DNA of 64,000 nucleotides from Vicinamibacterales bacterium (GTDB taxonomy: Bacteria; Acidobacteriota; Vicinamibacteria; Vicinamibacterales; UBA2999), in the NCBI GenBank assembly GCA_036802945.1, contig DAIRVG010000001.1, positions 33,166 through 97,165 on the forward strand, written 5' to 3'. The position numbers and the translations under genes are program-made. The notes under the pieces are model-generated. The model saw only the letters and a program-made list of their open reading frames with translations. It ran no database searches and was not told where the DNA came from. Positions 5,047 to 54,935 of the stretch are shown here, piece after piece; within the stretch, counting starts at the first letter, position 1, and every line of letters begins with the position of its first letter.

Positions 5047-5141
5047 CGACCCTCTGTGTTCAGCTGGGCCCGACCGCGCTCGTCACGTGCCGCCATCCGA
5101 TGCCGCGTCACTGCAAGAAGATGAGCTAACATTAGCCTCTG

Positions 5142-28302: not shown

Positions 28303-28595
28303 GCCGGCATCGTAGCGTTCATCACATGGACCGTCAAACCGCGGCCGGACGCATTGACCCGCAGCTTGTAAATGGCGTAGTGTGAACGGGTTGCGGCGCT
28401 TTCCGCCCTTCTTCCAGATAAGCCGCTTCGTTAGAAAAGTGAACGTTGAACCTCGCGCGGTCTCGTTCTCGAGCCGCCCTCGTTCGTTGCGGCGACGCAC
28501 GTGCTGATCGCTCCGGTGAACGTGCTCCGCTCGTTCCTTGATCTCTTCCAATGCGCCCGTGATGACGGCAGGCCGCCAATCTTCGAGGTGACCCG

Positions 28596-31397: not shown

Positions 31398-31479
31398 ACC
31401 GACGCGCAGGGCATCAGGCCTGCCGGATCCGCGAAATATGGCAGCTTGAATTGCGGATGAGCTAACATCCGGGGCCCCC

Positions 31480-34731: not shown

Positions 34732-34749
34732 GGCGATTCTCTGGAGTGG

Positions 34750-34786
34750 TCGGAGGCGCCCAGGGCTCGGATTCGCGCGCCTCCGA
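34750..34786 (+). terminator. Hairpin between the carbamoyltransferase fusion gene and the next operon (terminator candidate)
   Basis: A perfect 10-bp stem, TCGGAGGCGC (34750-34759) and GCGCCTCCGA (34777-34786), encloses a 17-nt loop 19 nt after the stop codon. There is no clear U-tract. Confidence 0.4.
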
Positions 34787-34830
34787 TGATTGACGCCTGC
34801 GCGCAAATGACTTAGCTTTAAACAATTACG

Positions 34831-37173: not shown

Positions 37174-37685
37174 TGACCGGGCGTGACGACGTACGCCTGG
37201 TGCCGCTGGGGCGGGAGCACCTGGCGCGGACACGCGAGTGGACCAACGATTCGGATCTGATGCGGTTGATGGATCGCAGCAGGATCGTCTCGGAGATCGA
37301 ACACGAAGCCTGGTTCGCCTCGATCGCCACACGAGACGATTGTGAGTACTTCGCCATAGAGCAGGCGGGGGAACCACGCCACGTCGGCAACGTCTGGCTC
37401 TGGGCGATTGACGCCCGTCATTGCAAAGCCGAGCTGCGCATTGTCGTCGGCGAGCCCTCGGCGCGCGGCCGCGGCGTCGGCCATCTCGCGATCGATCACC
37501 TCTGCCGGCACGCGTTCGACCAGCTCGCCCTTCATCGCATCTACGCGTATGTCCTCGCGATCAATCCCGGCGGGAAGCGCGCTTTCGAGAAGGCGGGCTT
37601 CGTCGTCGAGGGGCGGCTCAAGGACGATCGGTCGACCGCCAGCGGCTTCGTCGACAGTTGGCTGCTCGCCCGGGTCGTTCGTTGA
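37173..37685 (+). CDS. GNAT N-acetyltransferase (RimL/PseH-like)
   Basis: Contains LVPLGREHL..EW.ND, EHEAWF, RGRGVGHLAIDHL, YAYVLAINPGGKRAFEKAGFVVEG. Its start overlaps the upstream stop by 1 nt (TGATG). Confidence 0.8.
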   Translation: MTGRDDVRLVPLGREHLARTREWTNDSDLMRLMDRSRIVSEIEHEAWFASIATRDDCEYFAIEQAGEPRHVGNVWLWAIDARHCKAELRIVVGEPSARGRGVGHLAIDHLCRHAFDQLALHRIYAYVLAINPGGKRAFEKAGFVVEGRLKDDRSTASGFVDSWLLARVVR

Positions 37686-37729
37686 CCGTATCGAGACAAA
37701 TGACCTAGAATGAATACGTTACAGCTTCA

Positions 37730-41389: not shown

Positions 41390-42229
41390 ATGTCCAAACC
41401 ATCCGTGCCCTGCCCTGCGTGCGCGAATACTCACACGAAGGCGATCAAGCCGTGGCGGCTCGGGAAACACAACGCCATCGCCTGTTGGCGGTGCGGGCTG
41501 GTTTTCACCCATCCGCAGCCCGCTCCCGAGACGTTGGAGGCGTACTACCAGCCCGACGGCGGATGGCGTGAGTTCCGTCCCGATCCGAAGGGGACGGATG
41601 CACAGACGCGCCACAAGGGTCCGGGGGGATTGGCGGTACTCGACGTGCTCGACAGATACGTGCCGCCGGGCACGCGACGCGTGCTCGATTTCGGCTGCGG
41701 CGTCGGCGCGTGGCTGAACGTGCTTCAGGATCGCGGATGGGAAACGTACGGCATCGAGCCGTCGAGTGATGCCGCCTTCGTCCGCCACCAGCGCCTGCAT
41801 GAGATCCCGAGCGACGGCAGTTTCGACCTGCTGGTGATGTATCACGTTCTCGAACACCTGCCTCGGCCGCTCGAGACGTTACGTCAGCTTTCCGCGGCCA
41901 TGCGGGTGGGCGGGTACTGCTTCGTCAGCGTCCCGCGTTTGGATGCGGTGGCGGCACACCGAAAGCTGACCTACTGTCTCCACCCTACACACCACATCGT
42001 GGCGTTCACCGAGGCGTGCCTTCGCGGGCTGCTTGCCGGCGCCGGTTTCCAGGTGGTCACCGCGCTGCACGAAATGGATCCGCTCTTCACCGACGGCGTC
42101 CCGCTTCGGTTGCGCCTTCTGGCTCGCCGGGTCGCGAACCCGTTGCCGTGGCCCGATCCCGCGAAGTCGCTGCGCGCACTGTTCGAGAACCTGATTCCCC
42201 TCCTCGAGGAGCGGAAAGAAGCCCGGTGA
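41390..42229 (+). CDS. Zinc-ribbon SAM-dependent methyltransferase (paralogue of 19535..20368)
   Basis: Contains CPACA...CWRCGLVFTHPQP, VLDFGCGVGAWLN, MYHVLEHLPRPLETL and HHIVAFTEACLRGLLA. Confidence 0.8.
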   Translation: MSKPSVPCPACANTHTKAIKPWRLGKHNAIACWRCGLVFTHPQPAPETLEAYYQPDGGWREFRPDPKGTDAQTRHKGPGGLAVLDVLDRYVPPGTRRVLDFGCGVGAWLNVLQDRGWETYGIEPSSDAAFVRHQRLHEIPSDGSFDLLVMYHVLEHLPRPLETLRQLSAAMRVGGYCFVSVPRLDAVAAHRKLTYCLHPTHHIVAFTEACLRGLLAGAGFQVVTALHEMDPLFTDGVPLRLRLLARRVANPLPWPDPAKSLRALFENLIPLLEERKEAR

Positions 42230-43032
42230 GTGTCGACATCCTTCCCGGAACGCCGCGCGTGTCGTTCGGTCTCTCGATGCTCGGATGGGCGCTCAATGAA
42301 GAAGAGAGCATCGGTTCGTATATCGATCGCGCAGGCGCGTTCCTTCAAACGCTGACCGATGACTTCGAGCTGATCGTCATCGACGACGGCAGCCGCGATC
42401 GGACCTGGGAGATCCTGGTCGACTACCAGCGGTCGCGCCCGTGGCTGAAGCCGTACCGCAACGAACGCAACTTCGGTTCGGGCTACAACACGAAGCGCGC
42501 GATCTCTCTCGCCTCGAAGGACTACGTGTTCTGGCAGACGGTCGATTGGGCGTACGACATCCGGCATCTGGCGCATGCGCTGAACGATCTCCACACGGTC
42601 GACGTGCTGCAGGGCGTCCGGCGTCACACGACTTCCGCTGGCGCGATCCTCGAACGGCGATCGGACAATGCCTACAAGGGGCTGGTGTCGGTCGTCAATT
42701 ACCACCTGATCCGGACGCTGTTCAGGCTCCCAATCCACGACTATCAGAACGTGACGGTGTATCCTCGCGGCCTGATCCAGGGCGTGAGGCTCGAGACGGA
42801 GAGCTCGTTCACCAACGCCGAGTGTCTGTTGAAGACATGGTGGCAGGGAGCGACGTTCAAGGAAGTGCACGTGCCGTTTGTCAAACGGCAGCGCGGCACC
42901 GGTACGGGGACGCGGCCGCGCGCAATCGCGGCGGCGATTCGAGACATCCTCTCGTGGTGGACGAAATGGGTTCTGCTCGGCCGGCGCCCGCACAGCGGCC
43001 GCGGGCGCGTCATCTCGATCGATGAATCGTGA
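42226..43032 (+). CDS. GT2 glycosyltransferase
   Basis: GTG 42226 overlaps the upstream stop (GTGA). Contains LIVIDDGSRDRT and NERNFGSGYN, and a basic C-terminal tail. Confidence 0.85.
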   Translation: MSVDILPGTPRVSFGLSMLGWALNEEESIGSYIDRAGAFLQTLTDDFELIVIDDGSRDRTWEILVDYQRSRPWLKPYRNERNFGSGYNTKRAISLASKDYVFWQTVDWAYDIRHLAHALNDLHTVDVLQGVRRHTTSAGAILERRSDNAYKGLVSVVNYHLIRTLFRLPIHDYQNVTVYPRGLIQGVRLETESSFTNAECLLKTWWQGATFKEVHVPFVKRQRGTGTGTRPRAIAAAIRDILSWWTKWVLLGRRPHSGRGRVISIDES

Positions 43033-43057
43033 GCAGGTCCTCGTTGCCGCGCAGCCG

Positions 43058-43145
43058 GCGCGGTTGGCGGCGGCGTTTTCGGCGCGTTACCATAGGCGGC
43101 TGTTGCCAATCCCACAATCGAAGTCGACGCACACCCGCGCGGGCG
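43058..43145 (+). promoter_or_regulatory. Conserved intergenic element, copy 1 (promoter-like boxes plus conserved leader)
   Basis: About 82% identical over ~70-80 nt to 48563..48650, in the same orientation and at a similar distance (~50 nt) from the next start codon. It contains TTGGCG, an 18-nt spacer and TACCAT, followed by AGGCGGCTGTTGCCAATCCCACAATCGAA. Confidence 0.55.
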
Positions 43146-43188
43146 ATCGGTTTCCTGGCGCCGGGAACCGGCAGGCCGGTGAGGCGAG

Positions 43189-43869
43189 ATGATTAAACAA
43201 TACGGCCGCGGATGCCTGCTGCACGAGAGCCTGAAGACGTACGGACACAACTGGATCGGCGCCCATTCTATGATCCTGGAGAACGTGATCCTCGGCTACC
43301 CGACGAGCGATGTCCTGCTGAAGATCATGCATCGGCGTACGCGCCATGAAGATCTCGACTACGTCGGGGTTCGGATCGGGCATCACTGCATCATCCGATC
43401 GGAGGCGATACTCTATCGTGACGTGCAGATCGGCAACTACGTGCGGACAGGTCACAAGGTGCTCATCCGCGAGCGCTGCCGCATCGGTCATCACGTGCTC
43501 GTCGGCACCAATGTGGTCATCGACAACGACTCCACAATCGGAAGTCGAGTCAGCATTCAGTCGACCGTCTACATCCCGACGAAAACGATCATCGAGGACT
43601 GGGTGTTCATCGGCCCCAATGCGGTCTTTACCAACGACCGCTTCCCGATCCGCCTCAAGGCGCCGCTCGCCGCGCCGCGTATTCGCCGCGGGGCGACGAT
43701 CGGCGCCAACGCGACGATTCTGCCGGGTGTGGTGGTCGGAGAAGGGGCAATGGTCGCGGCGGGAGCCATCGTAACGAACAACGTGCCGCCATGGCATCTC
43801 GCGATCGGCGCCCCGGCAAGGTTCGAAACGCTTCCGCCGCGCCTCCGTCGGCAGAACCGGATCGTCTGA
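43189..43869 (+). CDS. Hexapeptide-repeat (left-handed beta-helix) sugar N/O-acyltransferase
   Basis: Successive [LIV]-G-x4 hexads run through VRIGHHCIIRSEAILYRDVQIGNYVRTGHKVLIRERCRIGHHVLVGTNVVI...IGANATILPGVVVGEGAMVAAGAIV. Confidence 0.85.
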   Translation: MIKQYGRGCLLHESLKTYGHNWIGAHSMILENVILGYPTSDVLLKIMHRRTRHEDLDYVGVRIGHHCIIRSEAILYRDVQIGNYVRTGHKVLIRERCRIGHHVLVGTNVVIDNDSTIGSRVSIQSTVYIPTKTIIEDWVFIGPNAVFTNDRFPIRLKAPLAAPRIRRGATIGANATILPGVVVGEGAMVAAGAIVTNNVPPWHLAIGAPARFETLPPRLRRQNRIV

Positions 43870-43871
43870 TC

Positions 43872-44846
43872 GTGCGACTCGCAGACGCGAGCGTGCTTGT
43901 CATCGGCGGTGCCGGCTTCATCGGAAGCCACCTGGTCGATCTGCTGGTCGATCGCGGCGTGAAACGCCTCTCCGTGGTCGACACCCTCTGGCTCGGTCGC
44001 GAAGAGAACCTCGCGTCCGCGCGGCGGCGGCGTCCGGACCTCGTTTTTTACAAGGAGGATGCCGCGGACTATTTCGCGCTGCGCACGATCTTCGTGGCGG
44101 AACGCCTCGATCTCGTGTTCAATCTCGCGACCCGTCCCCTGAGCTACAGCTTCACGCACCCCCGCGGCGCCTACATGACGAGCGTGGATATCGCGGTGAA
44201 CCTGGCCGAATTGCTCCGCGAGCAGCAGTTCGGACGGCTGGTGCATTTTTCGACTTCCGAGGTCTACGGCGATGCCATCACCATTCCGATGACGGAGGAC
44301 CACCCGCTGCACCCCACCACCTCCTACGCCGCCGGAAAACTTGCGGCCGACGTACTGCTGCAGTCATACGTGGAAATGTTCAAGGTTCCCGTGCTGACCG
44401 TGCGACCGTTCAACAATTACGGTCCCCGGCAGAACAGCGGGGATTACGCGGCGGTTATTCCGATCACCATCCGGCGGATCGCTTCCGGACTGCCTCCGAT
44501 CGTCGAAGGCTCCGGCGAGCAGACACGGGACTTCACCTACGTGAGGGACACCGTGCGCCTCGCCGCCGATCTCTGCGAGTGCGAGGCCGCCTGGGGCGGC
44601 ACGTTCAACGTGGCTCGCGCCGATGAAGTGCGGATCGGCGAGCTGATTGCGACGATTGGGGCCGTCATGGGTTGCGCGAGTCCCGCCGAGCGGCGCCCGC
44701 CGAGGCCCGCCGATCATCGGCGTCATCTTGCCGCCACGGATCGCGCGCGCTCACTCATCGCCTTCGACGACCTGACACCGTTGGAGGTGGGACTCGCCGA
44801 GACTATCGCGTGGTACACGGAGTCACTCAACCAGCGTGCGCGCTGA
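43872..44846 (+). CDS. NAD-dependent NDP-sugar epimerase/dehydratase (extended SDR)
   Basis: GTG 43872 follows the upstream stop. Contains VIGGAGFIGSHL, STSEVYG and a YxxxK motif (YAAGK). Confidence 0.85.
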   Translation: MRLADASVLVIGGAGFIGSHLVDLLVDRGVKRLSVVDTLWLGREENLASARRRRPDLVFYKEDAADYFALRTIFVAERLDLVFNLATRPLSYSFTHPRGAYMTSVDIAVNLAELLREQQFGRLVHFSTSEVYGDAITIPMTEDHPLHPTTSYAAGKLAADVLLQSYVEMFKVPVLTVRPFNNYGPRQNSGDYAAVIPITIRRIASGLPPIVEGSGEQTRDFTYVRDTVRLAADLCECEAAWGGTFNVARADEVRIGELIATIGAVMGCASPAERRPPRPADHRRHLAATDRARSLIAFDDLTPLEVGLAETIAWYTESLNQRAR

Positions 44847-45780
44847 CACGGCACCGTCGCGCGTCGTGTTCATGGGCAGCAAGCGGCTCGGTGTTCGCAG
44901 TCTCGAGGCCCTTGCCCTCCTGCCGGATGTGACGGTGGCGGCCGTGACACTTGACGATCGCGACGACGTCCGAAGCGCATACGATGACTTCACCGCGACC
45001 TGCGGCGCACGGGGTATTCCGTGTACGGTCGCGCGCACCCGCGCCGACGCCTCCGCGGCCCTCCGCCGCCACGAACCGGATATTTGCGTTGTCTGCGGGT
45101 GGTACTGGATGGTGGCCCCGTCGGACCTCGCATCTGTTCCGGCGGGCTTCGTCGGCGTTCACTTTTCCGCGCTGCCGAAATACCGGGGCGGATCCCCGCT
45201 GGTCTGGCAGATGATCAACGGAGAGCCGGAGGTTGGAATCTCGCTCTTTTCATTCGCCGACGGTGTCGATGAAGGGCCAGTCTGGGCGCAACGGCTGTTG
45301 CCTGTCGGTCCTGATGAAACGATCGGCGACGTATTGCCCAGGCTCGAGGACGCCGCCGTCCAGTTGCTCACCACGCATGTGCCACGAATCCTGAAGGGCG
45401 ACGTTCAAGCAACGCCACAGGATCACTCGCGCGCGACGTACTGCGCGCTGCGTCGTCCGGAGGATGGAGAAATCTCCTGGGAACGATCAGCGCGCGAGGT
45501 CCACGATTTCATTCGCGCGCAGTCGAAACCCTATCCAGGTGCGTTCACATCGGTGGAGCGGAAACGAATCGCGATCTGGCGATCACGGCTCGCGGCCACT
45601 ACCTATTACGGCACGCCCGGTCAGATCGTCCAGGTAACCTCCGACGGCGTCTGGATCGTATGCGGTGATCATCATCCACTCATCGTCGAACGCGTCGGAA
45701 CCGATGGGACCGAGGTGCCGGCGCACGAGGTCTTGAGATCGATTTCCCTCCGATTGCACTCCGTCGACCGCAGTCGGTGA
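44836..45780 (+). CDS. Formyltransferase (Fmt/ArnA-N/sugar N-formyltransferase family) with C-terminal Fmt-like domain
   Basis: Contains VVFMGS, CVVCGWYWMV, VGVHFSALPKYRGGSPLVWQMING (HxSLLPxxRG-type) and VDEGPV. The start could be ATG 44836 or GTG 44866. Confidence 0.85.
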   Translation: MRADTAPSRVVFMGSKRLGVRSLEALALLPDVTVAAVTLDDRDDVRSAYDDFTATCGARGIPCTVARTRADASAALRRHEPDICVVCGWYWMVAPSDLASVPAGFVGVHFSALPKYRGGSPLVWQMINGEPEVGISLFSFADGVDEGPVWAQRLLPVGPDETIGDVLPRLEDAAVQLLTTHVPRILKGDVQATPQDHSRATYCALRRPEDGEISWERSAREVHDFIRAQSKPYPGAFTSVERKRIAIWRSRLAATTYYGTPGQIVQVTSDGVWIVCGDHHPLIVERVGTDGTEVPAHEVLRSISLRLHSVDRSR

Positions 45781-46484
45781 TGGCCGCGGACGCGGTGAGC
45801 CTCATCGTTCCTGCCTGCGACGAAAGCGGAAGTATCGAAGGAACGGTTCGAGAAGCTGTCGCTGCTTTTGCGCGTCACGGTATCGAGCGGCAGGAAATCG
45901 TGCTGGTCGACGACGGGAGTCGTGATGACACGCGGGCGGTCATGGATCGGCTCGGCCGCGAGCTGCCGACCGTCCGGGTCGTCACGCATGATGTCAACCG
46001 CGGGCTTGGCGCGGCGATCCGTACGGGACTGAGCGCCGCGCATGGTGACATCCTGCTGTGGGTTCCCGGCGATGGCCAGTACGCGGTGAACGATCTGTTG
46101 CATGGCCTTTCACTGCTTGACAGCGGCGGTGTCGTAATCGGTCTCCGCCGCGCGCGTGGCGACGTCGCTCGCGGCCTCGTCTCGCGCTGCTTTCATGGGC
46201 TCATCTTCCTGTTTTTCCGTTTCGACGCCTCACGGATGTCGGGACTCTTCATGATTCGCCGAGCTGTGTTCGAGCGCCTTCGGCCGCAATCCGGAGACGT
46301 CTTCCTCAACTACGAGATCCCTCTCCTCTGCGTACGTCATGGCTTGCGGGTGGAGCCGCTCGATGTGACCCTCCATCCAAGGCGGAGCGGTGTCTCGAAG
46401 GTCGTGAACGCGCGGACAATCGGGCGCATCCTGTGGGAAATGGCGCGCTTCCGCCTGCGCCTGTGGCATGGGTCAGACCGATGA
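45777..46484 (+). CDS. GT2 polyprenyl-phosphate glycosyltransferase-like (CsbB/ArnC-like, no TM tail)
   Basis: Contains SLIVPACDESGSI, IVLVDDGSRDDT and VPGDGQY. It has GTGA and ATGA overlaps with its neighbours. Confidence 0.85.
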   Translation: MMAADAVSLIVPACDESGSIEGTVREAVAAFARHGIERQEIVLVDDGSRDDTRAVMDRLGRELPTVRVVTHDVNRGLGAAIRTGLSAAHGDILLWVPGDGQYAVNDLLHGLSLLDSGGVVIGLRRARGDVARGLVSRCFHGLIFLFFRFDASRMSGLFMIRRAVFERLRPQSGDVFLNYEIPLLCVRHGLRVEPLDVTLHPRRSGVSKVVNARTIGRILWEMARFRLRLWHGSDR

Positions 46485-48511
46485 ATCGCGTGGTGCCGCA
46501 CAGGGTGCTTGGGCTCGCCATTGTGGCGATCTACGCGGCCCTGGTCTTGTGGCCGTACGTGGCCGTGGGGCCGAACGACCTCGAGGAGTTCTTCACGGGC
46601 ATCATCGGCACCAAGCTCGCCGTGCAGGCCATCATGGCGGGGCAGTGGCCGTTCTGGAGCGTCGACATCGGCCTCGGCGTACCGCTACCGCTGAAGTATC
46701 ACTTCATCACCCATCCCGCGAGCGGGCTGTGCCTTATCGACGACTGCCAGCGCGCGATGCGAATCGCCGCAGCGCTCCAGATCGTGATCGGAGCGCTGTG
46801 CATGGCGCTGATCCTCCGCGCAAGCGGCATCGGTCGATCGCTCTCGACCGTCGGCGCGCTGGCGTTTCTCGTCACCTCGTCGACCATCGAAGACACGTAC
46901 GTCAACGACTGGTCCAGCACTGCGCTCGCTGAGGCGTCCATTCCAATCCTGATCTATGCGGCGCTGAGACTGTTCGCCGCCGACGATCGCCGCGATCCTG
47001 TCCTCTGGACGCTGGTGTTCGGCGGCGTCATCGGATTCCTCCTCAGCATGGGATATCCGGCCCCGCAGTTCATGATCGTGGGGTTGTTCCTCCTCGCGCG
47101 TCCTTCAAAACTGTGGGAGCGTCGTGGCTGGTTCGCGCTTGCCGCGGCAGTGGCGTTGTGCATCGGAGGGGCTCATCTCTATCACCTCACGCAACAGATC
47201 CTGGCGACACCTCCAACCGCTCTCCGCAGCGTGCACGACGAGGCCAGCCCTCTCGTCGAGCTGTGGTCGACGTTTCTCCGTCCGTTCGGTGGTGACCTAG
47301 ACAAGACCTGGCGGATCATTTTTCTTGGTCCTCCCTTCGCGATGCTCGCGACCCTTGCGCTGTTCCGCCGCACGCCCGCGTTGTGGCCTTACCAGTTCGG
47401 TCTTGTGGCGAGCGTGGCGCTCATGCTGCTGCCCGAAGGCGCCCTCTTCAACCTGGTCACGGCGCGCTGGTTCTTCCGCGCAGGCGTCAACATCTTCGGG
47501 ATCGTGCTGGCAACGCACCTTCTGGCGTCGTTCATGACGAGCTTCGATCGTCGTCGCACCGCCGTGGCAGCCGTCGCTGGCCTTGTGGTCCTGCAGCTCG
47601 CGTGGCAGTGGTGGGCGTTCCTGCCGTTGTGGCGTTCGGTCGCGCAGGTCGCGCTCGGCGGTTCAGAGCCGGACTCAAATGTGCGGCGGTTGTCCCTGGT
47701 ACAACCTGCTGTCGCAAGGCTGCAAGCGTTGAACGCCGCGCGGCCGGGTCGGTTGATGTTCAGCGATCGTGCCGGCCGGGCGATTCGCTCGCTGACGTTC
47801 ACGGCCGATGGCATTGCGCCCAACGTCTTTGCGATCGCCAACATTCCCACGGTGAGCGCGTTTGCGCATGGAATCGTGCTCGACGCTCTGTATCCGACGG
47901 AAGAGCTCACGGGTGGTCCGATATGGCCGCCGGCGAGCGCGCACACCGATCAGGCATTTCTGGATGTCCTTGGCATTCGTTACCTGCTGATGCTTCAGGG
48001 TGAGCAGGGCGCCCCGGGTCTGCGCGAGATCGGTTCGGTCCCGGGTGGGCTGACACTGTTTGAGAACCCGGGCGCGTGGCCAGAAGCTTTCACGGTCGAC
48101 ACGTACCCCTCGGCGAAGGAACCGCGCAAGGCCGGATGCGAGCACGATCGCTTTCTCTGCGCGGACTTCAGCGCCTACCAGATTCACCGGTTGACCACGG
48201 CTGTTGGCATCGATTGGCATCACGATGGTATGACGCTGCGCGTTCCGAAAATGGACCTGCCGCAGCGACTGGTCGTGACTCAGTGGTATCAGCCGGATTG
48301 GCACGTCTCGAGCGGTCGTGCCTCGCTGAGCAGAGTGATCGAGCAGTTCATCGGCGTCACGATTGCGCCCGGGGAGACATCGGTTCGGCTGACGTACTTT
48401 CCTGCGGTGCGAGGCGCGCTCTTTGTTTTCGGCTGTCTGTCAGAACTTGCGGTCGCTGGTGTGTGTGTGGTGATGGCGGTGCTTATCAGGCGTCGACCGC
48501 GCGAGCTCTGA
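46481..48511 (+). CDS. Polytopic membrane protein, YfhO-like GT-C glycosyltransferase (tentative)
   Basis: ATG 46481 overlaps the GT2 stop. Contains AGQWPFWSVDIGLGVP near the N-terminus, many helices, a periplasmic C-terminal part with VLGIRYLLM and TLFENPGAWPEAF, and a final TM helix. Confidence 0.7.
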   Translation: MNRVVPHRVLGLAIVAIYAALVLWPYVAVGPNDLEEFFTGIIGTKLAVQAIMAGQWPFWSVDIGLGVPLPLKYHFITHPASGLCLIDDCQRAMRIAAALQIVIGALCMALILRASGIGRSLSTVGALAFLVTSSTIEDTYVNDWSSTALAEASIPILIYAALRLFAADDRRDPVLWTLVFGGVIGFLLSMGYPAPQFMIVGLFLLARPSKLWERRGWFALAAAVALCIGGAHLYHLTQQILATPPTALRSVHDEASPLVELWSTFLRPFGGDLDKTWRIIFLGPPFAMLATLALFRRTPALWPYQFGLVASVALMLLPEGALFNLVTARWFFRAGVNIFGIVLATHLLASFMTSFDRRRTAVAAVAGLVVLQLAWQWWAFLPLWRSVAQVALGGSEPDSNVRRLSLVQPAVARLQALNAARPGRLMFSDRAGRAIRSLTFTADGIAPNVFAIANIPTVSAFAHGIVLDALYPTEELTGGPIWPPASAHTDQAFLDVLGIRYLLMLQGEQGAPGLREIGSVPGGLTLFENPGAWPEAFTVDTYPSAKEPRKAGCEHDRFLCADFSAYQIHRLTTAVGIDWHHDGMTLRVPKMDLPQRLVVTQWYQPDWHVSSGRASLSRVIEQFIGVTIAPGETSVRLTYFPAVRGALFVFGCLSELAVAGVCVVMAVLIRRRPREL

Positions 48512-48562
48512 GCCATCGCTCCATTGGATCGCGTGGCGGGACAGGCGGAGAATGCTGGGCAC

Positions 48563-48650
48563 CTGCGGTTGTCGCGACGTTTGCGGCGCGTTACGATAGG
48601 CGGCTGTTGCCAACCCAACAATCGAAATCGGTGCGCATCCCCGCGCAGGT
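48563..48650 (+). promoter_or_regulatory. Conserved intergenic element, copy 2
   Basis: Contains TTGTCG, a 17-nt spacer and TACGAT, followed by AGGCGGCTGTTGCCAACCCAACAATCGAA. See copy 1 at 43058..43145. Confidence 0.55.
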
Positions 48651-48662
48651 ACTTGCTGGATA

Positions 48663-49394
48663 ATGGAAGACCCTTCGGAGGGTCAGACCCTCGTCGTCCT
48701 CCAACCCGGCTACCTGCCCTGGCTGGGGTTCTTCGATCAGTTCCGGCGTGCGGACATCTTCGTGTATTACGACGACGTCCAGTATGACAAGCATGGCTGG
48801 CGCAACCGGAACCGCATCAAGACGCGGCACGGGCCGCAATGGCTGACGGTGCCGGTGAAGCATGCAGGCCTTGGCCTGCCGCGGATCCTGGATGTCACGA
48901 TCGACGGGCGCACGCCGTGGGCACGGAAACACGTGGCGAGTATCCGACAGGCGTACGCGCGCGCGCCATTCGCGCCGCGGTACCTGCCGCAATTGGAGGC
49001 CGTGCTGCAGCAGTCGTGGGAGCGGCTGATCGACCTCGACATCGCCGTCATCGATCTGATGTGCACCTGGTTCGGGCTGTCGCGGCGCGTGGAGCGCTCA
49101 TCGGCGCTCGGCATCGAAGGCGGGAAGAGCGAGCGGCTGCTCAGGTTCTGCCAGCACTTTGGCGCCGGCCGGTACCTGAGTGGCAACGCAGCGCGGGACT
49201 ATCTGGATACGGCGCTGTTCGTACGTGAAGGTATCCATGTCGAGTGGCAGAACTTTCAGCCGCCGACCTATCCACAGCTCCACGGCGAGTTCGTGCCGCA
49301 CCTGTCCGCGCTCGACCTCGTGCTGAATTGCGGCGACAATGCGCGCGCGATTCTCGAAGGCGGCGAAATTTCACACTCTGGAACGACAACGTGA
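48663..49394 (+). CDS. WbqC-family protein
   Basis: Contains LQPGYLPWLGFFDQ, VYYDDVQYDKHGWRNRNRIKT and GPQWLTVPV, as in WbqC-like proteins of amino-sugar O-antigen clusters. Confidence 0.8.
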   Translation: MEDPSEGQTLVVLQPGYLPWLGFFDQFRRADIFVYYDDVQYDKHGWRNRNRIKTRHGPQWLTVPVKHAGLGLPRILDVTIDGRTPWARKHVASIRQAYARAPFAPRYLPQLEAVLQQSWERLIDLDIAVIDLMCTWFGLSRRVERSSALGIEGGKSERLLRFCQHFGAGRYLSGNAARDYLDTALFVREGIHVEWQNFQPPTYPQLHGEFVPHLSALDLVLNCGDNARAILEGGEISHSGTTT

Positions 49395-50428
49395 AGACAT
49401 TTCTCATCACCGGCGGCGCAGGGTTCATCGGCAGCAACTTCGTACGGTACCTGTACGACAACTACCCCGAGTATCGGATCCGGGTGCTCGACCAGCTTAC
49501 CTACGCGGGAAGCGTCGAGAACCTCCCGGTCGGGTTCAACGAGGCTTCTTCCGACGGCCGTCTTCAGTTCTGGTACGGCGACGTGCGGAACGCGTCGCTG
49601 GTCGATACGCTCGTGGAAGACGCGGACGTGGTGGTGCACTTCGCCGCCGAAACGCACGTCACGCGGTCGATTTACGACAACTACCACTTTTTCGAGACCG
49701 ACGTGCTTGGCACACAGGTGGTGGCCAATGCGGTGCTCAAGCATGTCAAGGGCGTCAACCGGTTCATTCACATCTCGACGTCGGAAGTCTATGGCACGGC
49801 GGTGAGTGCCAAGATGGGCGAGGACCATCCGCTGATGCCGATGAGCCCGTACGCGAGCGCGAAGGCGGGCGCCGACCGACTCGTATATTCCTACTGGGCC
49901 ACGTACCGGCTGCCTGCGATCATCGTCCGGCCGTTCAACCAGTACGGGCCGCATCAGCACCTCGAAAAAGTGATTCCGCGGTTCATCACGAGCTGCCTGC
50001 TCGACGAACCGCTGCGCGTGCATGGTGACGGTTCGGCCGCGCGCGACTTTACCTACGTCGGCGACACATGCCGCGCGCTCGACGCAATTGCCCACTGTGA
50101 GCTCGAGAAGGTCGTTGGCGAGGTGATCAACCTCGGGTACGGCGAGAGCTACACCCTTTCGCAGATAGCGCCGATGATTGTGCGGAAGATGAACAAGCCG
50201 GCAAGCCTGATCACGTACGTCGGGGATCGGCCCGGGCAGGTCTTCCGCCATACGGCCGACGCAAGCAAGGCGCAGCGTTTGCTCGGCTGGACGCCGCAGG
50301 TCGGCTTCGAAGAGGGGCTGGATAAGACCATCGCGTGGTACCTGGCGAACAGGCCGTGGTGGGAAAAACAGCTGTGGATGCGCGAGATCCCGATCATCAC
50401 CAAGTCGGGAAAGCGCGAGATGCACTGA
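49391..50428 (+). CDS. rfbB: dTDP-glucose 4,6-dehydratase-like NDP-sugar dehydratase
   Basis: GTG 49391 overlaps the upstream stop. Contains ITGGAGFIGSNFVRY, LTYAGSVENL, HFAAETHVTRSI, HISTSEVYG, SPYASAKAGADRL, NQYGPHQHLEKVIPRF and GDGSAARDFTYV. Confidence 0.85.
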   Translation: MKTFLITGGAGFIGSNFVRYLYDNYPEYRIRVLDQLTYAGSVENLPVGFNEASSDGRLQFWYGDVRNASLVDTLVEDADVVVHFAAETHVTRSIYDNYHFFETDVLGTQVVANAVLKHVKGVNRFIHISTSEVYGTAVSAKMGEDHPLMPMSPYASAKAGADRLVYSYWATYRLPAIIVRPFNQYGPHQHLEKVIPRFITSCLLDEPLRVHGDGSAARDFTYVGDTCRALDAIAHCELEKVVGEVINLGYGESYTLSQIAPMIVRKMNKPASLITYVGDRPGQVFRHTADASKAQRLLGWTPQVGFEEGLDKTIAWYLANRPWWEKQLWMREIPIITKSGKREMH

Positions 50429-50457
50429 CCGCGCCGCGCCTCCGGCGCTCACGGGTC

Positions 50458-50463
50458 TATAAT
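50458..50463 (+). promoter_or_regulatory. Perfect TATAAT -10 candidate upstream of wzt
   Basis: TATAAT lies 31 nt upstream of ATG 50495 and is preceded by a small GC hairpin, GCGCCG and CGGCGC (50431-50448). There is no good -35 box. Confidence 0.3.
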
Positions 50464-50494
50464 CGCTTCCGGGTGACTCGTCTGACCGCTCGCA

Positions 50495-51769
50495 ATGGAT
50501 AGCCTGATCGTTGAGGGTCTCGGCAAGCGGTACTTTCTTCCATCCAAGAGGCCCACGGAGGAGCCCCGGCCCGCGCTGCGTCTCGGCCGGTTGACGATAC
50601 CGCGATTGCCGTGGAACCGGCGCCGCAAGGCGGACCGGGAGCTGTGGGCGTTACGAAACGTCTCGTTTGCCGTCCCGCACGGCACGATCCTGGGCATCAT
50701 CGGCGCAAATGGGGCGGGCAAGTCGACGCTGCTGAAAATCATCGCACGCGTCACGCGGCCGACCGAGGGACGGGTCATCGGATTCGGGCGCGTCGTCTCG
50801 CTGCTGGAGCTCGGCGCGGGGTTCAATCCGGACTTTTCCGCGTACGACAACATCCTGATGAACGCGGCGATGCACGGGATCTCACGGCGCGAGGCGCTGA
50901 AGCGGATAGACGAGATCGTGTCGTTTGCCGAGCTCGACGAATTCCTCGACAACCCGCTGCGCCAGTACTCGAGCGGGATGTATCTCCGTCTCGCGTTTTC
51001 CGTCGCGATCAACATGCAGCCGGACATCCTTCTTGCCGACGAGATCCTGGCGGTCGGAGACATGGCGTTCCAGGACCGCTGTCTTGCCCGCGTCGCGCAG
51101 GAGGCCGAGCGAGGGCTCACGGTGCTGTTCGTGTCGCACGACATGTCGGCGTTGTCCCGGCTGTGCGATCGCATCGTCTGGATCGACAAGGGCGAACTTG
51201 TCCGCGATGGTGACCCCGAGCCGGTGATTGCGGAGTACGAGGAGACGGCGCTTCGGGGCAAGCACGGCGCTCGCGGCTTCGGCGACACGGCGGGGCGACA
51301 CACCAACGTGGAGGCGGAGATCGCGAGCGTCCGCCTGTTGAACACGGCAGGTGAGGAGATCGGTGCGGCGCCGACGGGCGAAGACGTCTACATCAGGCTG
51401 CGGCTGAAGGTCCGAAAGCCGGGACGCGCGGTCAGGGGCGTGGTGGACGTGAACGCGAAAGGCGTCTTCCTGTTCCGCACGGTACAGTCCGAGGAATTCG
51501 TGTCGGACCGCCGCGGCGTGGTCGATCTGATCGTCCGCATTCCGCCGAATCTGCTCGCAGAAACGACCTACTCGGTGAACGTCACGGTGTACACGCGATG
51601 GGAGAAGGAATCCAAGATCGTGCTGGCGAATGCGTTGACGTTCATGGCGTACGGCGAGCAGCACGGCGCGGAGTTCAAGAGCCGGGTCAGAAGCGGTGTG
51701 ATCGCGCCGCAGCTCGAGTGGCACGTTCGAACCCACGCGAATGATGGGAAGCGAAAGGTACGCGTATGA
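50495..51769 (+). CDS. wzt: Polysaccharide ABC exporter ATP-binding protein with C-terminal extension (Wzt-type)
   Basis: Has Walker A GANGAGKST, the signature YSSGMYLRLAF and Walker B ILLADE, plus the GAGFNPDFSAYDNI block typical of Wzt/TagH. The NBD is followed by a ~170-aa beta-rich C-terminal domain. Confidence 0.9.
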   Translation: MDSLIVEGLGKRYFLPSKRPTEEPRPALRLGRLTIPRLPWNRRRKADRELWALRNVSFAVPHGTILGIIGANGAGKSTLLKIIARVTRPTEGRVIGFGRVVSLLELGAGFNPDFSAYDNILMNAAMHGISRREALKRIDEIVSFAELDEFLDNPLRQYSSGMYLRLAFSVAINMQPDILLADEILAVGDMAFQDRCLARVAQEAERGLTVLFVSHDMSALSRLCDRIVWIDKGELVRDGDPEPVIAEYEETALRGKHGARGFGDTAGRHTNVEAEIASVRLLNTAGEEIGAAPTGEDVYIRLRLKVRKPGRAVRGVVDVNAKGVFLFRTVQSEEFVSDRRGVVDLIVRIPPNLLAETTYSVNVTVYTRWEKESKIVLANALTFMAYGEQHGAEFKSRVRSGVIAPQLEWHVRTHANDGKRKVRV

Positions 51770-51836
51770 GGCGTACTGCGGCGGTGTCTCGTTGGCACCG
51801 ACGCACGCGGCGGCGAGCGGCGCCGGCGAGTAGGCG

Positions 51837-52718
51837 ATGAACCCGATGTCATCGAGCGCCAGCGAGGCGGCAGAACGTTCTGCCTGGAGCATCAGCGCCG
51901 ACGCGCGCGATGGTTTTGCAGCGCGCGTCCGCGAAGTGTGGCAGTACCGCCGCATCCTGTGGTTCTTCGCGTTGCGCGCAACCCAGGCGCTTTATCGTAA
52001 GACCTACCTGGGCGTCTGGTGGCTGTTCATCCGGACCCTCGTGCCCCTCATCGTTGGCGCGTTCGTGTTCGGTGCGGTGATCAATGTCCCATCGGGCGGG
52101 GTCCCGTATTTGGTGTTCTTCCTGGCGGGCCAGCTCGCCTGGAACTTTTTCGACGGTCCGCTCGTACGTGCCAGCCGTGGCATCGACGGCAACCGGCAGT
52201 TGCTGACGAAGCTGTACATCCCGCGAATCATCCTGCCGCTCGGTCAAATGGCAGCCGGCGTCGTCGAACCAATCATCATCGCCGTGATTCTCGTCGTGAC
52301 CGTGGTGTATTACCGACGCGTCGACGGCGTCTGGTACGTCCAGCCGGGCCTGCGACTGATGGCCGCGTCCGCGGCCGTCCTTGTGATCCTCTGGTTTGCG
52401 TTCGCGCTGTCGCTCTTCACCTCGGTGTGGCAGGGGCGTGCACGTGATACGCGGTTCGTGCTGCGGCACATCGTCGGGTTCTGGCTCCTTTTGACGCCGG
52501 TGGTCTATCCCGCCTCCCAGGTGTCGGCGCGGATTCGCTGGCTGATCTATGTCAACCCGCTCACGGCGCCGGTGGAAACGTTCAAATGGGCCGTGCTGCC
52601 AGGCATGGAGCACTCGTGGCCGTGGTTCATGTACAGCGTCGGCCTGACGGCAGCGCTCTTCGTCGCCGGCTTGTGGTATTTCGCGCGCTCCGAAGGCGCT
52701 ACGATGGACAAGCTGTGA
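51837..52718 (+). CDS. wzm: ABC-2 type polysaccharide exporter permease (Wzm, copy 1)
   Basis: Contains RRILWFFALRATQALYRKTYLGVWWLFIRTL, six hydrophobic segments and a YVNPLT..ETFKW block. Confidence 0.85.
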   Translation: MNPMSSSASEAAERSAWSISADARDGFAARVREVWQYRRILWFFALRATQALYRKTYLGVWWLFIRTLVPLIVGAFVFGAVINVPSGGVPYLVFFLAGQLAWNFFDGPLVRASRGIDGNRQLLTKLYIPRIILPLGQMAAGVVEPIIIAVILVVTVVYYRRVDGVWYVQPGLRLMAASAAVLVILWFAFALSLFTSVWQGRARDTRFVLRHIVGFWLLLTPVVYPASQVSARIRWLIYVNPLTAPVETFKWAVLPGMEHSWPWFMYSVGLTAALFVAGLWYFARSEGATMDKL

Positions 52719-53557
52719 GCGCGCGATGGGAATTCGGGTCGCGTTCCCCCGGGGTTGGTGCGACGACGGTCGACGTGTGGCAACACAGGTGGCTGTTGCG
52801 AACCGTGGCGGTGCGGGCGTTTCAGCGTATGTACCGGCGCACGATCCTCGGCTGGCTGTGGCTGGTGATCAATCCGCTTCTGCCGTTGGTGATCCGCGCG
52901 ATCATCTTTGGTGCGCTGCTCGGAGTCTCATCGGACGGGCTGCCGTATTTTCTCTTCCTGCTCGGCGGTTCTATTGCCTGGGATCTGTTTGCGGCGACGT
53001 TGATGCGCGGCACCCGCGCCCTCGAGATGCATCGCGAGATGTCGGATCTGATCTATTATCCGCGCGCGATCCTGCCGATCGGTAACATCGCGCCGGCACT
53101 GTTGGAGCTCGGAATCAAGCTTGGCGTCTTTGTCGTGGCGCTGGTCTACTACATGATTCACGACGGCCGGCTCTACGTGCGATCGGACGCCGCGCTGCTC
53201 TGGGGTCTCTGCGCGCTCGTGCTCGCCCTGATCTTTGCGCTCGCCATTTCGCTCTTTACCTCGGTGTGGGGCGAAACGACGCGCGACACCCGTTTTGCGC
53301 TGAACCAGCTCTCCTCCGTCTGGTACTTGTTGACGCCGGTGCTTTACCCGATGTCGCAGGTGCCGGAGGCGTACCGCGGGTGGATCGTCTGGAACCCGAT
53401 GGCGGTCATCGTCGAGACGTTCAAGTGGGGAGTCTTCGGCGTCGGGACGTTTCAGCCGGTGCTGTTCGCCTGGACCGCCACTGCGATCGGCGGTCTGTTT
53501 CTCGCCGGTTTGATCTACTTTACGCGCACCGAGGCACGGATTATCGATGCGCGCTGA
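52715..53557 (+). CDS. wzm: ABC-2 type polysaccharide exporter permease (Wzm, copy 2)
   Basis: GTG 52715 overlaps the upstream stop (GTGA). Contains RWLLRTVAVRAFQRMYRRTILGWLWLVINPL and a WNPMAVIVETFKW block, parallel to copy 1. Confidence 0.8.
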   Translation: MSARWEFGSRSPGVGATTVDVWQHRWLLRTVAVRAFQRMYRRTILGWLWLVINPLLPLVIRAIIFGALLGVSSDGLPYFLFLLGGSIAWDLFAATLMRGTRALEMHREMSDLIYYPRAILPIGNIAPALLELGIKLGVFVVALVYYMIHDGRLYVRSDAALLWGLCALVLALIFALAISLFTSVWGETTRDTRFALNQLSSVWYLLTPVLYPMSQVPEAYRGWIVWNPMAVIVETFKWGVFGVGTFQPVLFAWTATAIGGLFLAGLIYFTRTEARIIDAR

Positions 53558-54935
53558 GCAAGCGAACGACCTTGCCCGCAGACTTCTGCGGCCGTTCGGC
53601 ATCTCGCCGATCACGCCTCTCGCACTCGCGATCTTCCGCACAGTCCTGGGTCTTGGGCTCCTGTACATCCTGCTGGTCTATCAGCCGATCGTGGCGAGGG
53701 CAGACGATGTCCGGCGACCGCACAGTCCGCTGGCTGACATGCAGTGGGTGTATGCGCTCGCCGTGAACAAGGGGGCGACGTCGGTCCTTCAGGGTGTGGC
53801 GTGCGTTGCCGCGGGGCTCTTTACGGTAGGCATCTTCGCGCGGCCGGCGTACGTCGTTGTCGTATCGCTGATGCTGGTCAACGTGCTGATGATCCTTGCC
53901 AGGGCGGGCGGGCACGACTGGGGTCTGCCGATCGTGACACTGCTGATCCTCACGGTCGTGCCGTGGAGTGACGCGCCAAGCCTGTTCCAGTTGCCCCGTT
54001 CATGGGCGAGATTCTCCGCAGCCAGCCTGGCGAGCCGCGCCTACGGATTCGCGGTCTGGCTTCCGGGGCTGACGGTCGGTCTGGCGCTTGCGGCGGCAGC
54101 CTACGCCAAGGTCGTCGGCACGGGCGTCCAGTGGATCACGAACGGGACCGTGCGGTACCACTTTGTCGAGGACGGCCGGAACGCGCCGGTGACGCTGGGT
54201 TTGTGGATCGCGACGCATCCGTCGGTCGCCATCGCCGTCTCCCTTGCGGCGGTGCTGACTGAAGCAGGGTTCATCCTCGTCATCTTCGCGCGGGACTGGC
54301 GTACTCGACTGGCGTTTGGATTGATGGGCGCCTCGATGATGGCCGGCTTCACCTTGTTCCAGGGAGTGGCATGGTGGCCCTGGCGGATCCTGTTCCTGGC
54401 GTTCCTGCCGTGGACGTTGCTCACGACGTTGGACAAAGGGACGACGATCGCATCCTCCGACGACGTTTCCGGTTCATCCTTCGTCGCCCAGCGCGATCTG
54501 ACGTGGACGCATGCCCTGCTCGTCGTCGTGCTGATTGCGGGTCAGTTGTGGGTCTCGGCTCGTGCGATCGAAATCGAGCCGTTCGTGTCGAACTATCCGA
54601 TGTATGCCTACACCTGGTCGTCAACGGAGGAATTCGACCGCCACCAGTCGCGAACACGGTTCGAGGCCGACGGCAAGGACATCTCAGACCGTATCGAAGC
54701 CGCCGGCGGTGAGGACGTTCTGAGGCAGATGGTCACGCGGAACGATGACAGCGAGTCCAACCGCGACGACATTGAGGAAGATCGCGCTGACTTCATCGCC
54801 CGCTACACCCGGATATATGGCGGCGTACCGCCCAGCATTGATGTCATTCTCCTCCAGCGACCGTTCGACTGGCAGCGGGGCAGATACCTGCCGCCAACGC
54901 GAGCGCGTATAGGAACGGTGCACCTGGCCCACTGA
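53547..54935 (+). CDS. HTTM-domain-like polytopic membrane protein
   Basis: Overlaps the second wzm by 11 nt. The N-terminus LALAIFRTVLGLGLLYILL resembles the start of the HTTM domain. It has about 8 hydrophobic helices and a soluble C-terminal ~140 aa. Confidence 0.65.
   Translation: MRAEQANDLARRLLRPFGISPITPLALAIFRTVLGLGLLYILLVYQPIVARADDVRRPHSPLADMQWVYALAVNKGATSVLQGVACVAAGLFTVGIFARPAYVVVVSLMLVNVLMILARAGGHDWGLPIVTLLILTVVPWSDAPSLFQLPRSWARFSAASLASRAYGFAVWLPGLTVGLALAAAAYAKVVGTGVQWITNGTVRYHFVEDGRNAPVTLGLWIATHPSVAIAVSLAAVLTEAGFILVIFARDWRTRLAFGLMGASMMAGFTLFQGVAWWPWRILFLAFLPWTLLTTLDKGTTIASSDDVSGSSFVAQRDLTWTHALLVVVLIAGQLWVSARAIEIEPFVSNYPMYAYTWSSTEEFDRHQSRTRFEADGKDISDRIEAAGGEDVLRQMVTRNDDSESNRDDIEEDRADFIARYTRIYGGVPPSIDVILLQRPFDWQRGRYLPPTRARIGTVHLAH

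Follow-up and report, generated by a model that had tools for sequence, protein, structure and literature searches.

A conserved promoter-like element beside wbqC, present on both sides of a glycan-modification module in a Vicinamibacterales polysaccharide cluster

Our analysis of a 64,000-nucleotide (nt) stretch of a Vicinamibacterales genome (assembly GCA_036802945.1, contig DAIRVG010000001.1, positions 33,166 to 97,165; hereafter the window) focused on an intergenic repeat of about 80 bases, which we named E and which is present as copy 1 (c1) and copy 2 (c2). We explain E, with moderate confidence, as an internal promoter with a short translated leader that serves the wbqC-dehydratase-wzt-wzm operon of a Vicinamibacterales-like lineage. 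Directly visible in the alignments are the repeat, its conservation, its fixed place beside wbqC, its single-copy "empty-site" arrangement in relatives, and the geometry of a short open reading frame (ORF) in its leader. The original prediction, made from the window alone, had pointed out the two copies; it was silent on the short ORF, with its conserved phase and a stop codon overlapping the next start codon, and on the copies bracketing an inserted module.

The repeat and its conservation beside wbqC

The two copies and the genes next to them are as follows.

43059..43141, forward strand: c1, direct repeat (nhmmer expectation value 4e-22, five-sequence profile)
48564..48648, forward strand: c2 (nhmmer expectation value 1.4e-22), which aligns with the wbqC-upstream regions of the related contigs L075, L076, L077, L078, and L088
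42016..43032, forward strand: GT2 glycosyltransferase, 5' of c1
from 43189, forward strand: hexapeptide acyltransferase, 3' of c1 (Pfam)
from 46433, forward strand: 692-amino-acid (aa) YfhO-like membrane protein, 5' of c2 (Pfam)
from 48663, forward strand: wbqC, 3' of c2 (Pfam)

A repeat search paired 43070-43141 with 48574-48645 without gaps and in the same orientation, at 85% identity over 72 nt, which confirmed the repeat that had been estimated by eye at about 82% over some 70 nt. With 1-nt indels, the similarity covers about 83 nt (approximately 43059-43141 versus 48564-48648) and stops abruptly on both sides. Both copies contain the 17-mer TAGGCGGCTGTTGCCAA, which occurs exactly twice in the window (0.11 expected). 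An nhmmer profile of the two copies found no third E in the 64 kb; a weak match at 52753-52804 (expectation value 0.077) was judged to be chance because it lies inside coding sequence for the conserved Wzm N-terminus (VWQHRWLL). The co-directional block 28596-54935 has, as predicted, only three gaps longer than 90 nt (34732-34830, 99 nt; 43033-43188, 156 nt; 48512-48662, 151 nt), and E occupies the latter two. The genes flanking c1 (GT2 and hexapeptide acyltransferase) are unrelated to those flanking c2 (YfhO-like protein and WbqC), so that, as the original prediction argued, E is not a by-product of gene duplication. Its claim that each copy ends 45 to 50 nt before the next start codon holds for c1 (about 44-48 nt to the ATG at 43189) but not for c2, which ends about 13-18 nt before the ATG at 48663.

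As orthologous loci we used fetched metagenome contigs encoding WbqC homologues. The search of related genomes that the original prediction had proposed found E in five of these related contigs:

L075: WbqC 85% identical to that of the window, AsnB 5' of E
L076: WbqC 82% identical, AsnB 5' of E
L077: WbqC 81% identical, AsnB 5' of E
L078: WbqC 80% identical, orthologue of the window GT2 (42016-43032) 5' of E
L088: WbqC 77% identical, LPG-synthase-like membrane protein 5' of E

Each of them has exactly one E, immediately upstream of wbqC. The gene on the 5' side varies between loci (at c2 of the window it encodes the 692-aa protein), and on the 3' side the order wbqC, dehydratase, wzt is kept in L075-L077 and wbqC plus dehydratase in L078. 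Between species, a 46-nt core of E is 0.70-0.87 identical; in the adjacent wbqC, identity is 0.48-0.68 at fourfold-degenerate sites and 0.86-0.91 at codon positions 1 and 2. Judged by these alignments, the core is under purifying selection, because its identity exceeds that of the wbqC fourfold sites.

Four more distant loci (L079-L082, WbqC 75% identical) have no gap and no E before wbqC, which overlaps the preceding gene. Their upstream order (DegT, radical-SAM, GNAT, unknown, AsnB, GT2) is the same as in the window, and their gene order suggests an ancestral single long operon. The gene overlapped by the wbqC GTG in these loci is LPG_synthase_TM-like (e.g., GTGA at 7177-7180 of L079).

E is a short repeated intergenic sequence, and weak GC-rich complementary ends (ACCTGCG...CGCAGGT) surround c2, features that a genome-wide REP, BIME, or MITE-type repeat happening to sit in these gaps would have. 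These 7-nt complementary ends occur only around c2, c1 has no equivalent inverted repeats, and the copies share no terminal inverted repeat. A scan for exact 17-mer words, which would miss diverged copies, returned 21 single matches among one genome from each of 185,579 species (GTDB), in unrelated phyla and none extending past the 17-mer; the best of them (L007) lies inside an 834-aa ORF. The same exact-word scan of JGI metagenomes gave 48 matches, of which four were real; all four come from this locus in a population that shares about 99% identity with the window (Ga0137452_1000043 holds both copies; Ga0137465 and Ga0137436 hold c2). Five hot-spring metagenome matches (L050, L052, L055, L063, and L065) are near-identical copies of one sequence without homology past the 17-mer; their layout is loosely E-like, which we judged to be chance, and we rejected them as E. 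BLAST found no match to E in plasmids and phages, and no extra copy was present in about 250 kb of related loci or in the same-population metagenome contigs. With two copies in 64 kb, real matches elsewhere only at this locus, and a position fixed beside wbqC, a dispersed repeat unrelated to these operons, the outcome against which the original prediction had warned, is very unlikely.

Promoter-like core of E

Three blocks of E are conserved: a -35-like GTTGTC, a -10-like TACGAT(A) after a spacer of 17-18 nt, and, after 2-4 variable bases, GCTGTTGCC. Their positions in the window are as follows.

43064..43093, forward strand: c1 promoter-like core, TTGGCG (-35), 18-nt spacer, TACCAT (-10)
48569..48597, forward strand: c2 promoter-like core, TTGTCG (-35), 17-nt spacer, TACGAT (-10), hexamers common to the orthologues
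43099..43107, forward strand: c1 block GCTGTTGCC, 5 nt after the -10, with TTG at 43103-43105

The hexamers picked out by eye (TTGGCG-N18-TACCAT in c1 and TTGTCG-N17-TACGAT in c2) were correct, and the promoter reading of the 5' part fits the wider alignment, in which the hexamers are the best-conserved positions and the spacer, though its sequence has indels, stays at 17 or 18 nt throughout the seven copies. The -35 block is GTTGGC in c1, GTTGTG in L088, and GTTGTC elsewhere; the -10 block is TACGAT in all five orthologues and TACCAT in c1. GCTGTTGCC is identical in five of the seven copies and becomes GCTGTTTGCC in L078 and GCGGTTGTC in L088. The following 30-40 nt (CCAAYCCMACA...GACGCAC) are conserved among the closest sequences only. 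The 3' half of the shared 5' leader that the original prediction proposed is conserved only among close relatives and is absent in L077, where it is deleted. Hexamers of the types TTGACS, TTGNCG, and TANNNT also appear in the remaining long gap of this block and around 28.3 kb, in the divergent region, and TANNNT is a -10 form reported for high-G+C bacteria (PMC3160421). The conservation of E reads as the footprint of a predicted sigma-70-type promoter together with the first transcribed bases, not of a long functional leader, and we consider it quite likely that E is a promoter.

Several results weigh against this assignment. The hexamers match TTGACA and TATAAT at only four of six positions each, which is weak for E. 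coli, a consensus scan that required 9 of 12 matches reported no promoter at E, and a loose promoter pattern was not enriched overall (7 matches versus 5.1 in simulations). Both hexamers of c1 are one base off the orthologue form (GTTGTC and TACGAT), and because of these changes c1 may be weaker or decaying. Two other signals were considered and rejected. For a sigma-54 promoter, the GG-to-GC spacing is 10 nt instead of 12, and the position of the GG is held by a conserved GATA (by inspection); a Rho-utilisation or C-rich leader gained no support, the six full-leader copies showing only mild C enrichment (C 0.32-0.42, G 0.23-0.35).

The original prediction had offered a cis-regulatory RNA as one reading of the 3' part, and a sequence conserved at an intergenic leader position could indeed be a riboswitch, an attenuator, or a processing site. 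Rfam, however, returned no matches at gathering thresholds; at thresholds relaxed to expectation values up to 10, the only match overlapping the gaps was to P10, on the minus strand, at 16.7 bits (gathering threshold 37 bits), and these sub-threshold matches have the look of chance. The minimum-free-energy folds of c1 and c2 differ and are no more stable than those of shuffled sequence (z-scores from -0.42 to +1.11 for whole gap, leader, and element), RNAalifold consensus folds of six and seven homologues reached only -3.9 and -4.8 kcal/mol, their covariation terms were -0.16 and +1.31, and the 3' leader is gone in L077. Lacking a family match, excess fold stability, and covariation, this idea retains hardly any credence.

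Equally little speaks for the second idea of that prediction, a site of the ops/JUMPstart type that recruits an RfaH-like NusG paralogue. The resemblance is that GGCGGCTG is loosely like GGCGGTAG and that the site heads long polysaccharide operons. RfaH makes base-specific contacts with G5 and T6 of the ops12 sequence GGCGGTAGCGTG (PMC5995543), but the corresponding sequence in the window is GGCGGCTGTTGC, where positions 6 and 7 are C and T. The GGCGG part is replaced by CACCG, CACGG, CAGGG, and GCGCG in L076, L077, L078, and L088, respectively, and the motif overlaps the predicted transcription start (0-10 nt away) and does not lie inside the leader. RfaH is known mainly from Gammaproteobacteria, and Pfam found no NusG-like protein among the window ORFs scanned. 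We regard such a site as highly improbable.

The same block contains a second promoter-like motif, TTGACS-N9-11-AAATGRC-N1-3-TAGNNT, at three intergenic forward-strand sites (28354-28383, 34790-34818, and 37682-37711); these are three matches versus 0.02 expected, for a pattern chosen after seeing the sites. With these three sites, the block may have five transcription units and two promoter types. A 13-mer, GATGAGCTAACAT, which contains a -10-like TAACAT hexamer, occurs in two identical forward-strand copies (5120-5132 and 31456-31468; two versus 0.04 expected), 9 nt before the start at 5142 (methyltransferase) and 11 nt before the start at 31480 (carbamoyltransferase), and the similarity is confined to the 13-mer.

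Short leaders and the upstream reading frame

The TTG inside GCTGTTGCC is conserved in all copies and opens a short ORF:

43103..43192, forward strand: c1 upstream ORF, 29 codons, LPIPQSKSTHTRAGDRFPGAGNRQAGEAR*, TGA overlapping the hexapeptide-transferase ATG (ATGA), TTG-to-start distance 86 nt
48607..48663, forward strand: c2 upstream ORF, 18 codons, LPTQQSKSVRIPAQVLAG*, TAA overlapping the wbqC ATG (TAATG), distance 56 nt
L075: 18 codons, GTGA overlap, distance 53 nt
L076: 18 codons, GTGA overlap, distance 53 nt
L078: 19 codons, TGATG overlap, distance 59 nt
L088: 26 codons, GTGA overlap, distance 77 nt

Each of the six copies with a leader has an open frame whose stop overlaps the start codon of the gene that follows, and all six TTG-to-start distances are 2 modulo 3. 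In L077, the deletion puts the conserved TTG in frame with wbqC, and the product, (M)PASPTLVVLQ, matches other WbqC N-termini. In the strain 99% identical to the window, the sole substitution inside c2, G to C in AATCGAAA, is synonymous in the upstream-ORF frame (TCG to TCC). In the loci without E (L079-L082), the wbqC GTG also overlaps an upstream stop as GTGA, and the surrounding GTGACCGG is that of L075; a stop-start overlap at wbqC is therefore found whether E is there or not.

The TTG follows the end of the -10 hexamer by 9 nt in c1, c2, L075, L076, and L077, by 10 nt in L078, and by 7 nt in L088. These spacings fall inside the leaderless range (5-12 nt, about 6 nt), and the codon is TTG in every copy, not AUG or GUG. 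A TANNNT ending 5-12 nt upstream is found at 9 of 43 gene starts in the window versus 0.6 expected, five of which are left after dropping four where a bounding in-frame TAA or TAG creates the motif. Upstream of smpB (12253) the arrangement is TACGAT-N6-ATG, and Shine-Dalgarno motifs are rare at the gene starts of the window. These patterns suggest that leaderless or very-short-leader mRNAs are widespread in this organism. Leaderless genes (TANNNT about 12 nt before the start) were reported in all three Acidobacteria genomes surveyed, where they account for 9.7-19.4% of genes (PMC3160421).

On the minus strand, 28300-28337 reads TTGACG-N17-TACGAT-N6-TTG before the gene at 26332-28302. This TTG at 28302 is in frame with the longer ORF 26332-28551; the 83 codons upstream of it have a junk-like translation and a third-position G+C of 0.61, versus 0.80 downstream. 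It is probably a leaderless start, making the ORF 83 codons shorter than its longest reading.

In the mechanism that we propose, sigma-70-type RNA polymerase would use GTTGTC (-35) and TACGAT (-10) across the 17-18 nt spacer, and transcription would begin a few bases before the conserved TTG in GCTGTTGCC, 7-10 nt past the -10 hexamer. The TTG would then open the ORF of 18-29 codons on a leaderless or nearly leaderless mRNA, and ribosomes finishing it would re-initiate at the first real gene by termination-reinitiation coupling, because the stop codon of the short ORF overlaps the start codon of that gene.

Translation of the short ORF, coupled to the next gene, is the most tentative part of the proposal, and we put it slightly below an even chance. 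In organisms examined to date, leaderless translation starts poorly at UUG, and the usual transcription start 6-8 nt after the -10 would leave a leader of 1-4 nt. An open frame has a chance probability of 0.57-0.79 per copy, and the conserved phase rests on about three to four independent length changes (P roughly 0.01). The upstream-ORF peptides are not conserved, and the differences between c1 and c2 fall mostly at codon position 2 of the upstream-ORF frame; six of eight fall at third positions of another frame, which has no start codon. That other frame, the wbqC frame, could have been read as an N-terminal extension of WbqC. We rejected such coding despite the third-position differences: TAG closes the frame in c1, c2, and L075, a start codon is missing, and in L088 the frame stands in a different phase to TACGAT.

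Part of the same evidence would fit a promoter combined with a protein-binding site, in which an operator or loading site is formed by GCTGTTGCC (about +1 to +10) together with the spacer, itself conserved in part (TTTC.GGCGCG). The factor would be a repressor, an activator, or a promoter-proximal antiterminator (lambda Q- or NusG-paralogue-like) that co-regulates the module and the wbqC operon, with the short ORF having no role of its own. In favour of this, the block following the -10 equals or exceeds the hexamers in conservation, conservation of the spacer goes beyond what a plain promoter needs, the same sequence stands on both transcription units, and the peptides of the upstream ORFs are not conserved. 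Against this, no regulator or NusG-like gene was seen in the window, the block is without clear dyad symmetry, and the modulo-3 phase, the stop-start overlaps, and the in-frame fusion in L077 are left unexplained. On balance we find a binding site unlikely. Its most specific form, in which a dedicated elongation or antitermination factor for the polysaccharide operons of acidobacteria loads close to the promoter, at GCTGTTGCC and the conserved spacer, is a long shot. If true, E would correspond in function to ops/RfaH, or to lambda Q with its binding site, and its duplication would bring acquired glycan modules under the same long-operon control.

Duplication around a glycan module and comparison with known systems

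The genes between and after the two copies, beyond those already listed, are as follows (all assigned by Pfam except where given without it).

43189..48511, forward strand: five-gene arn/gtr-like glycan-modification module of hexapeptide acyltransferase, epimerase/dehydratase, formyltransferase, GT2, and YfhO-like genes (Pfam)
from 43791, forward strand: NAD-dependent epimerase/dehydratase (Pfam)
from 44836, forward strand: formyltransferase (Pfam)
from 45777, forward strand: GT2 glycosyltransferase inside the module (Pfam)
48663..54935, forward strand: operon headed by c2, comprising wbqC, dehydratase-like gene, wzt, two wzm genes, and 462-aa membrane protein (Pfam)
from 49244, forward strand: dTDP-glucose-4,6-dehydratase-like gene (Pfam)
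from 50495, forward strand: wzt (Pfam)
from 51837 and from 52586, forward strand: two wzm genes (Pfam)
from 53547, forward strand: 462-aa membrane protein

The module lies exactly between c1 and c2. From its domain content, it would build a modified sugar on polyprenyl phosphate as the carrier and then move it onto a glycan outside the cytoplasm. In L075-L078 the module is absent between GT2 or AsnB and wbqC, and the arrangement is that of an "empty site": GT2, E, wbqC in L078 and AsnB, E, wbqC in L075-L077. The last 54 aa of the gene 5' of E in L078 match 42871-43032 at 80% identity (tblastn). In the window, c1 thus retains the ancestral left neighbour, GT2, and c2 the ancestral right neighbour, wbqC; c1 is the only copy found before a gene other than wbqC. 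On this synteny, c2 is the orthologue of the single wbqC-upstream element of the relatives, and c1 is a paralogous copy before the inserted module. The five-gene module occurs without E elsewhere, complete in L084 in a different context and partial in L001, L002, L004, and L083. We rejected E as a native part of the hexapeptide module, since it is absent upstream in these five loci, whose upstream regions are not mutually alignable.

Duplication of E likely came with insertion of the module: a self-contained five-gene unit would have inserted at E, which was duplicated in the process. Campbell-type recombination with an E-carrying donor, or another route, could have made the 83-nt direct duplication. 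The cores of c1 and c2 are 0.89 identical, and each is 0.85-0.87 identical to that of L075. By inspection, changes private to c1 and to c2 are interspersed along the element, with no split into a 5' and a 3' half, the pattern looked for as a sign of Campbell-type integration. With E on both sides, the module and the wbqC operon would each keep a promoter and a coupled leader.

Alternatively, c1 could be a mere recombination scar without function of its own, left, for example, when E on a circular intermediate recombined with chromosomal E in the Campbell manner. This reading is limited to c1 because E itself is under selection by the measure given above. It would account for direct repeats flanking a module that relatives lack at this site, for the changes in c1 at hexamer positions that are invariant in the wbqC-linked copies, and for the hexapeptide gene having one of the few Shine-Dalgarno-like motifs of the window (GAGG at -8). 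Yet c1, though about as diverged from c2 as from L075, has preserved its core, spacer length, and TTG, together with an open frame that stops exactly at ATGA, and it is unchanged in the 99%-identical strain, in which the flanks have substitutions. We therefore hold a functionless c1 to be improbable and retain the reading of both copies as promoters with leaders.

The window as a whole has a G+C content of 64% and, by Pfam on its ORFs, encodes two polysaccharide gene clusters, pdxA, and smpB; the Wzm/Wzt export genes belong to a polysaccharide cluster. The best named relatives of PdxA (82% identity) and of the hexapeptide transferase (77%) come from Vicinamibacterales metagenome-assembled genomes, which makes the source organism an uncultured acidobacterium. 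The part of the block upstream of c1 comprises, in addition to the GT2 gene:

from 28596, forward strand: 933-aa protein, no Pfam domain found
from 31480, forward strand: carbamoyltransferase/deacetylase
from 34831, forward strand: DegT aminotransferase
from 36061, forward strand: radical-SAM/SPASM protein
from 37173, forward strand: GNAT acetyltransferase
from 37730, forward strand: DCC1-like oxidoreductase
from 38013, forward strand: 520-aa protein, no Pfam domain found
from 39448, forward strand: AsnB-like amidotransferase
from 41390, forward strand: methyltransferase

Direct repeats of 70-75% identity between the two polysaccharide clusters (19763-20062 versus 41615-41914, and 24530-24648 versus 29129-29247) correspond to paralogous genes, namely Methyltransf_23 methyltransferases and large ORFs (about 790-930 aa) without a Pfam domain. 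In the second wzm ORF, the first start codon gives a 133-nt overlap with the first wzm; the real start is probably far later than 52586 because the conserved N-terminal motif begins near 52776. Positions 1-1495 of L028, a contig of the population about 99% identical, match the window up to 52072, inside the first wzm, with no similarity detectable beyond at the DNA level; either the distal part of the cluster was replaced at strain level, or the contig is an assembly chimera.

To our knowledge, gene expression signals are almost wholly uncharted in Vicinamibacteria and most other soil Acidobacteria because these bacteria are rarely cultured. The locus offers a predicted, phylogenetically footprinted promoter, GTTGTC-N17/18-TACGAT, and a candidate cassette of promoter and start codon tied to its gene by a stop-start overlap. 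It also illustrates how a mobile glycan-modification module may enter an O-antigen cluster without silencing the downstream export genes, because promoter and leader are duplicated. While no new class of regulator or RNA is revealed, the element is useful for start-site annotation in acidobacterial metagenome-assembled genomes and for the design of expression tools.

Among known systems, E is neither an ops/JUMPstart element, nor a riboswitch-like RNA, nor a REP element. It resembles the JUMPstart/ops sequences of Enterobacteria, which act with RfaH, as a short conserved sequence heading polysaccharide units at module-exchange junctions, but it fails the consensus at the contacted bases, its ops-like part is variable, and it overlaps the promoter instead of the leader. 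Termination-reinitiation has been surveyed across prokaryotes (PMC6728339), and coupling of an upstream ORF by this route was demonstrated for uPPE2-PPE2 of Mycobacterium tuberculosis (PMC11260477). E shares with that pair a short out-of-frame leader ORF, a 4-5 nt NUGA/URAUG overlap, a gene without a well-placed Shine-Dalgarno sequence, and a poorly conserved peptide. Unlike uPPE2, the ORF of E has neither a riboswitch nor its own Shine-Dalgarno sequence, begins with UUG 7-10 nt after the -10, and is a predicted one, in an uncultured acidobacterium. The TANNNT a few bases before a start codon recalls the leaderless mRNAs and short ORFs of Actinobacteria and Deinococcus (TANNNT about 12 nt before the start; PMC3160421), but nearly all known leaderless starts use AUG or GUG right at the 5' end, whereas E has UUG, placed 1-4 nt further from the -10. 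Like internal promoters of O-antigen and capsule clusters, E is intergenic and co-directional and splits sugar-precursor genes from wzm/wzt export genes; it differs from them in its unusually strong conservation over some 50 nt, the first transcribed bases included, and in being duplicated around an inserted module. E thus represents familiar kinds of signal in a form specific to one lineage of a little-studied phylum: a real, conserved, and fairly ordinary regulatory element.

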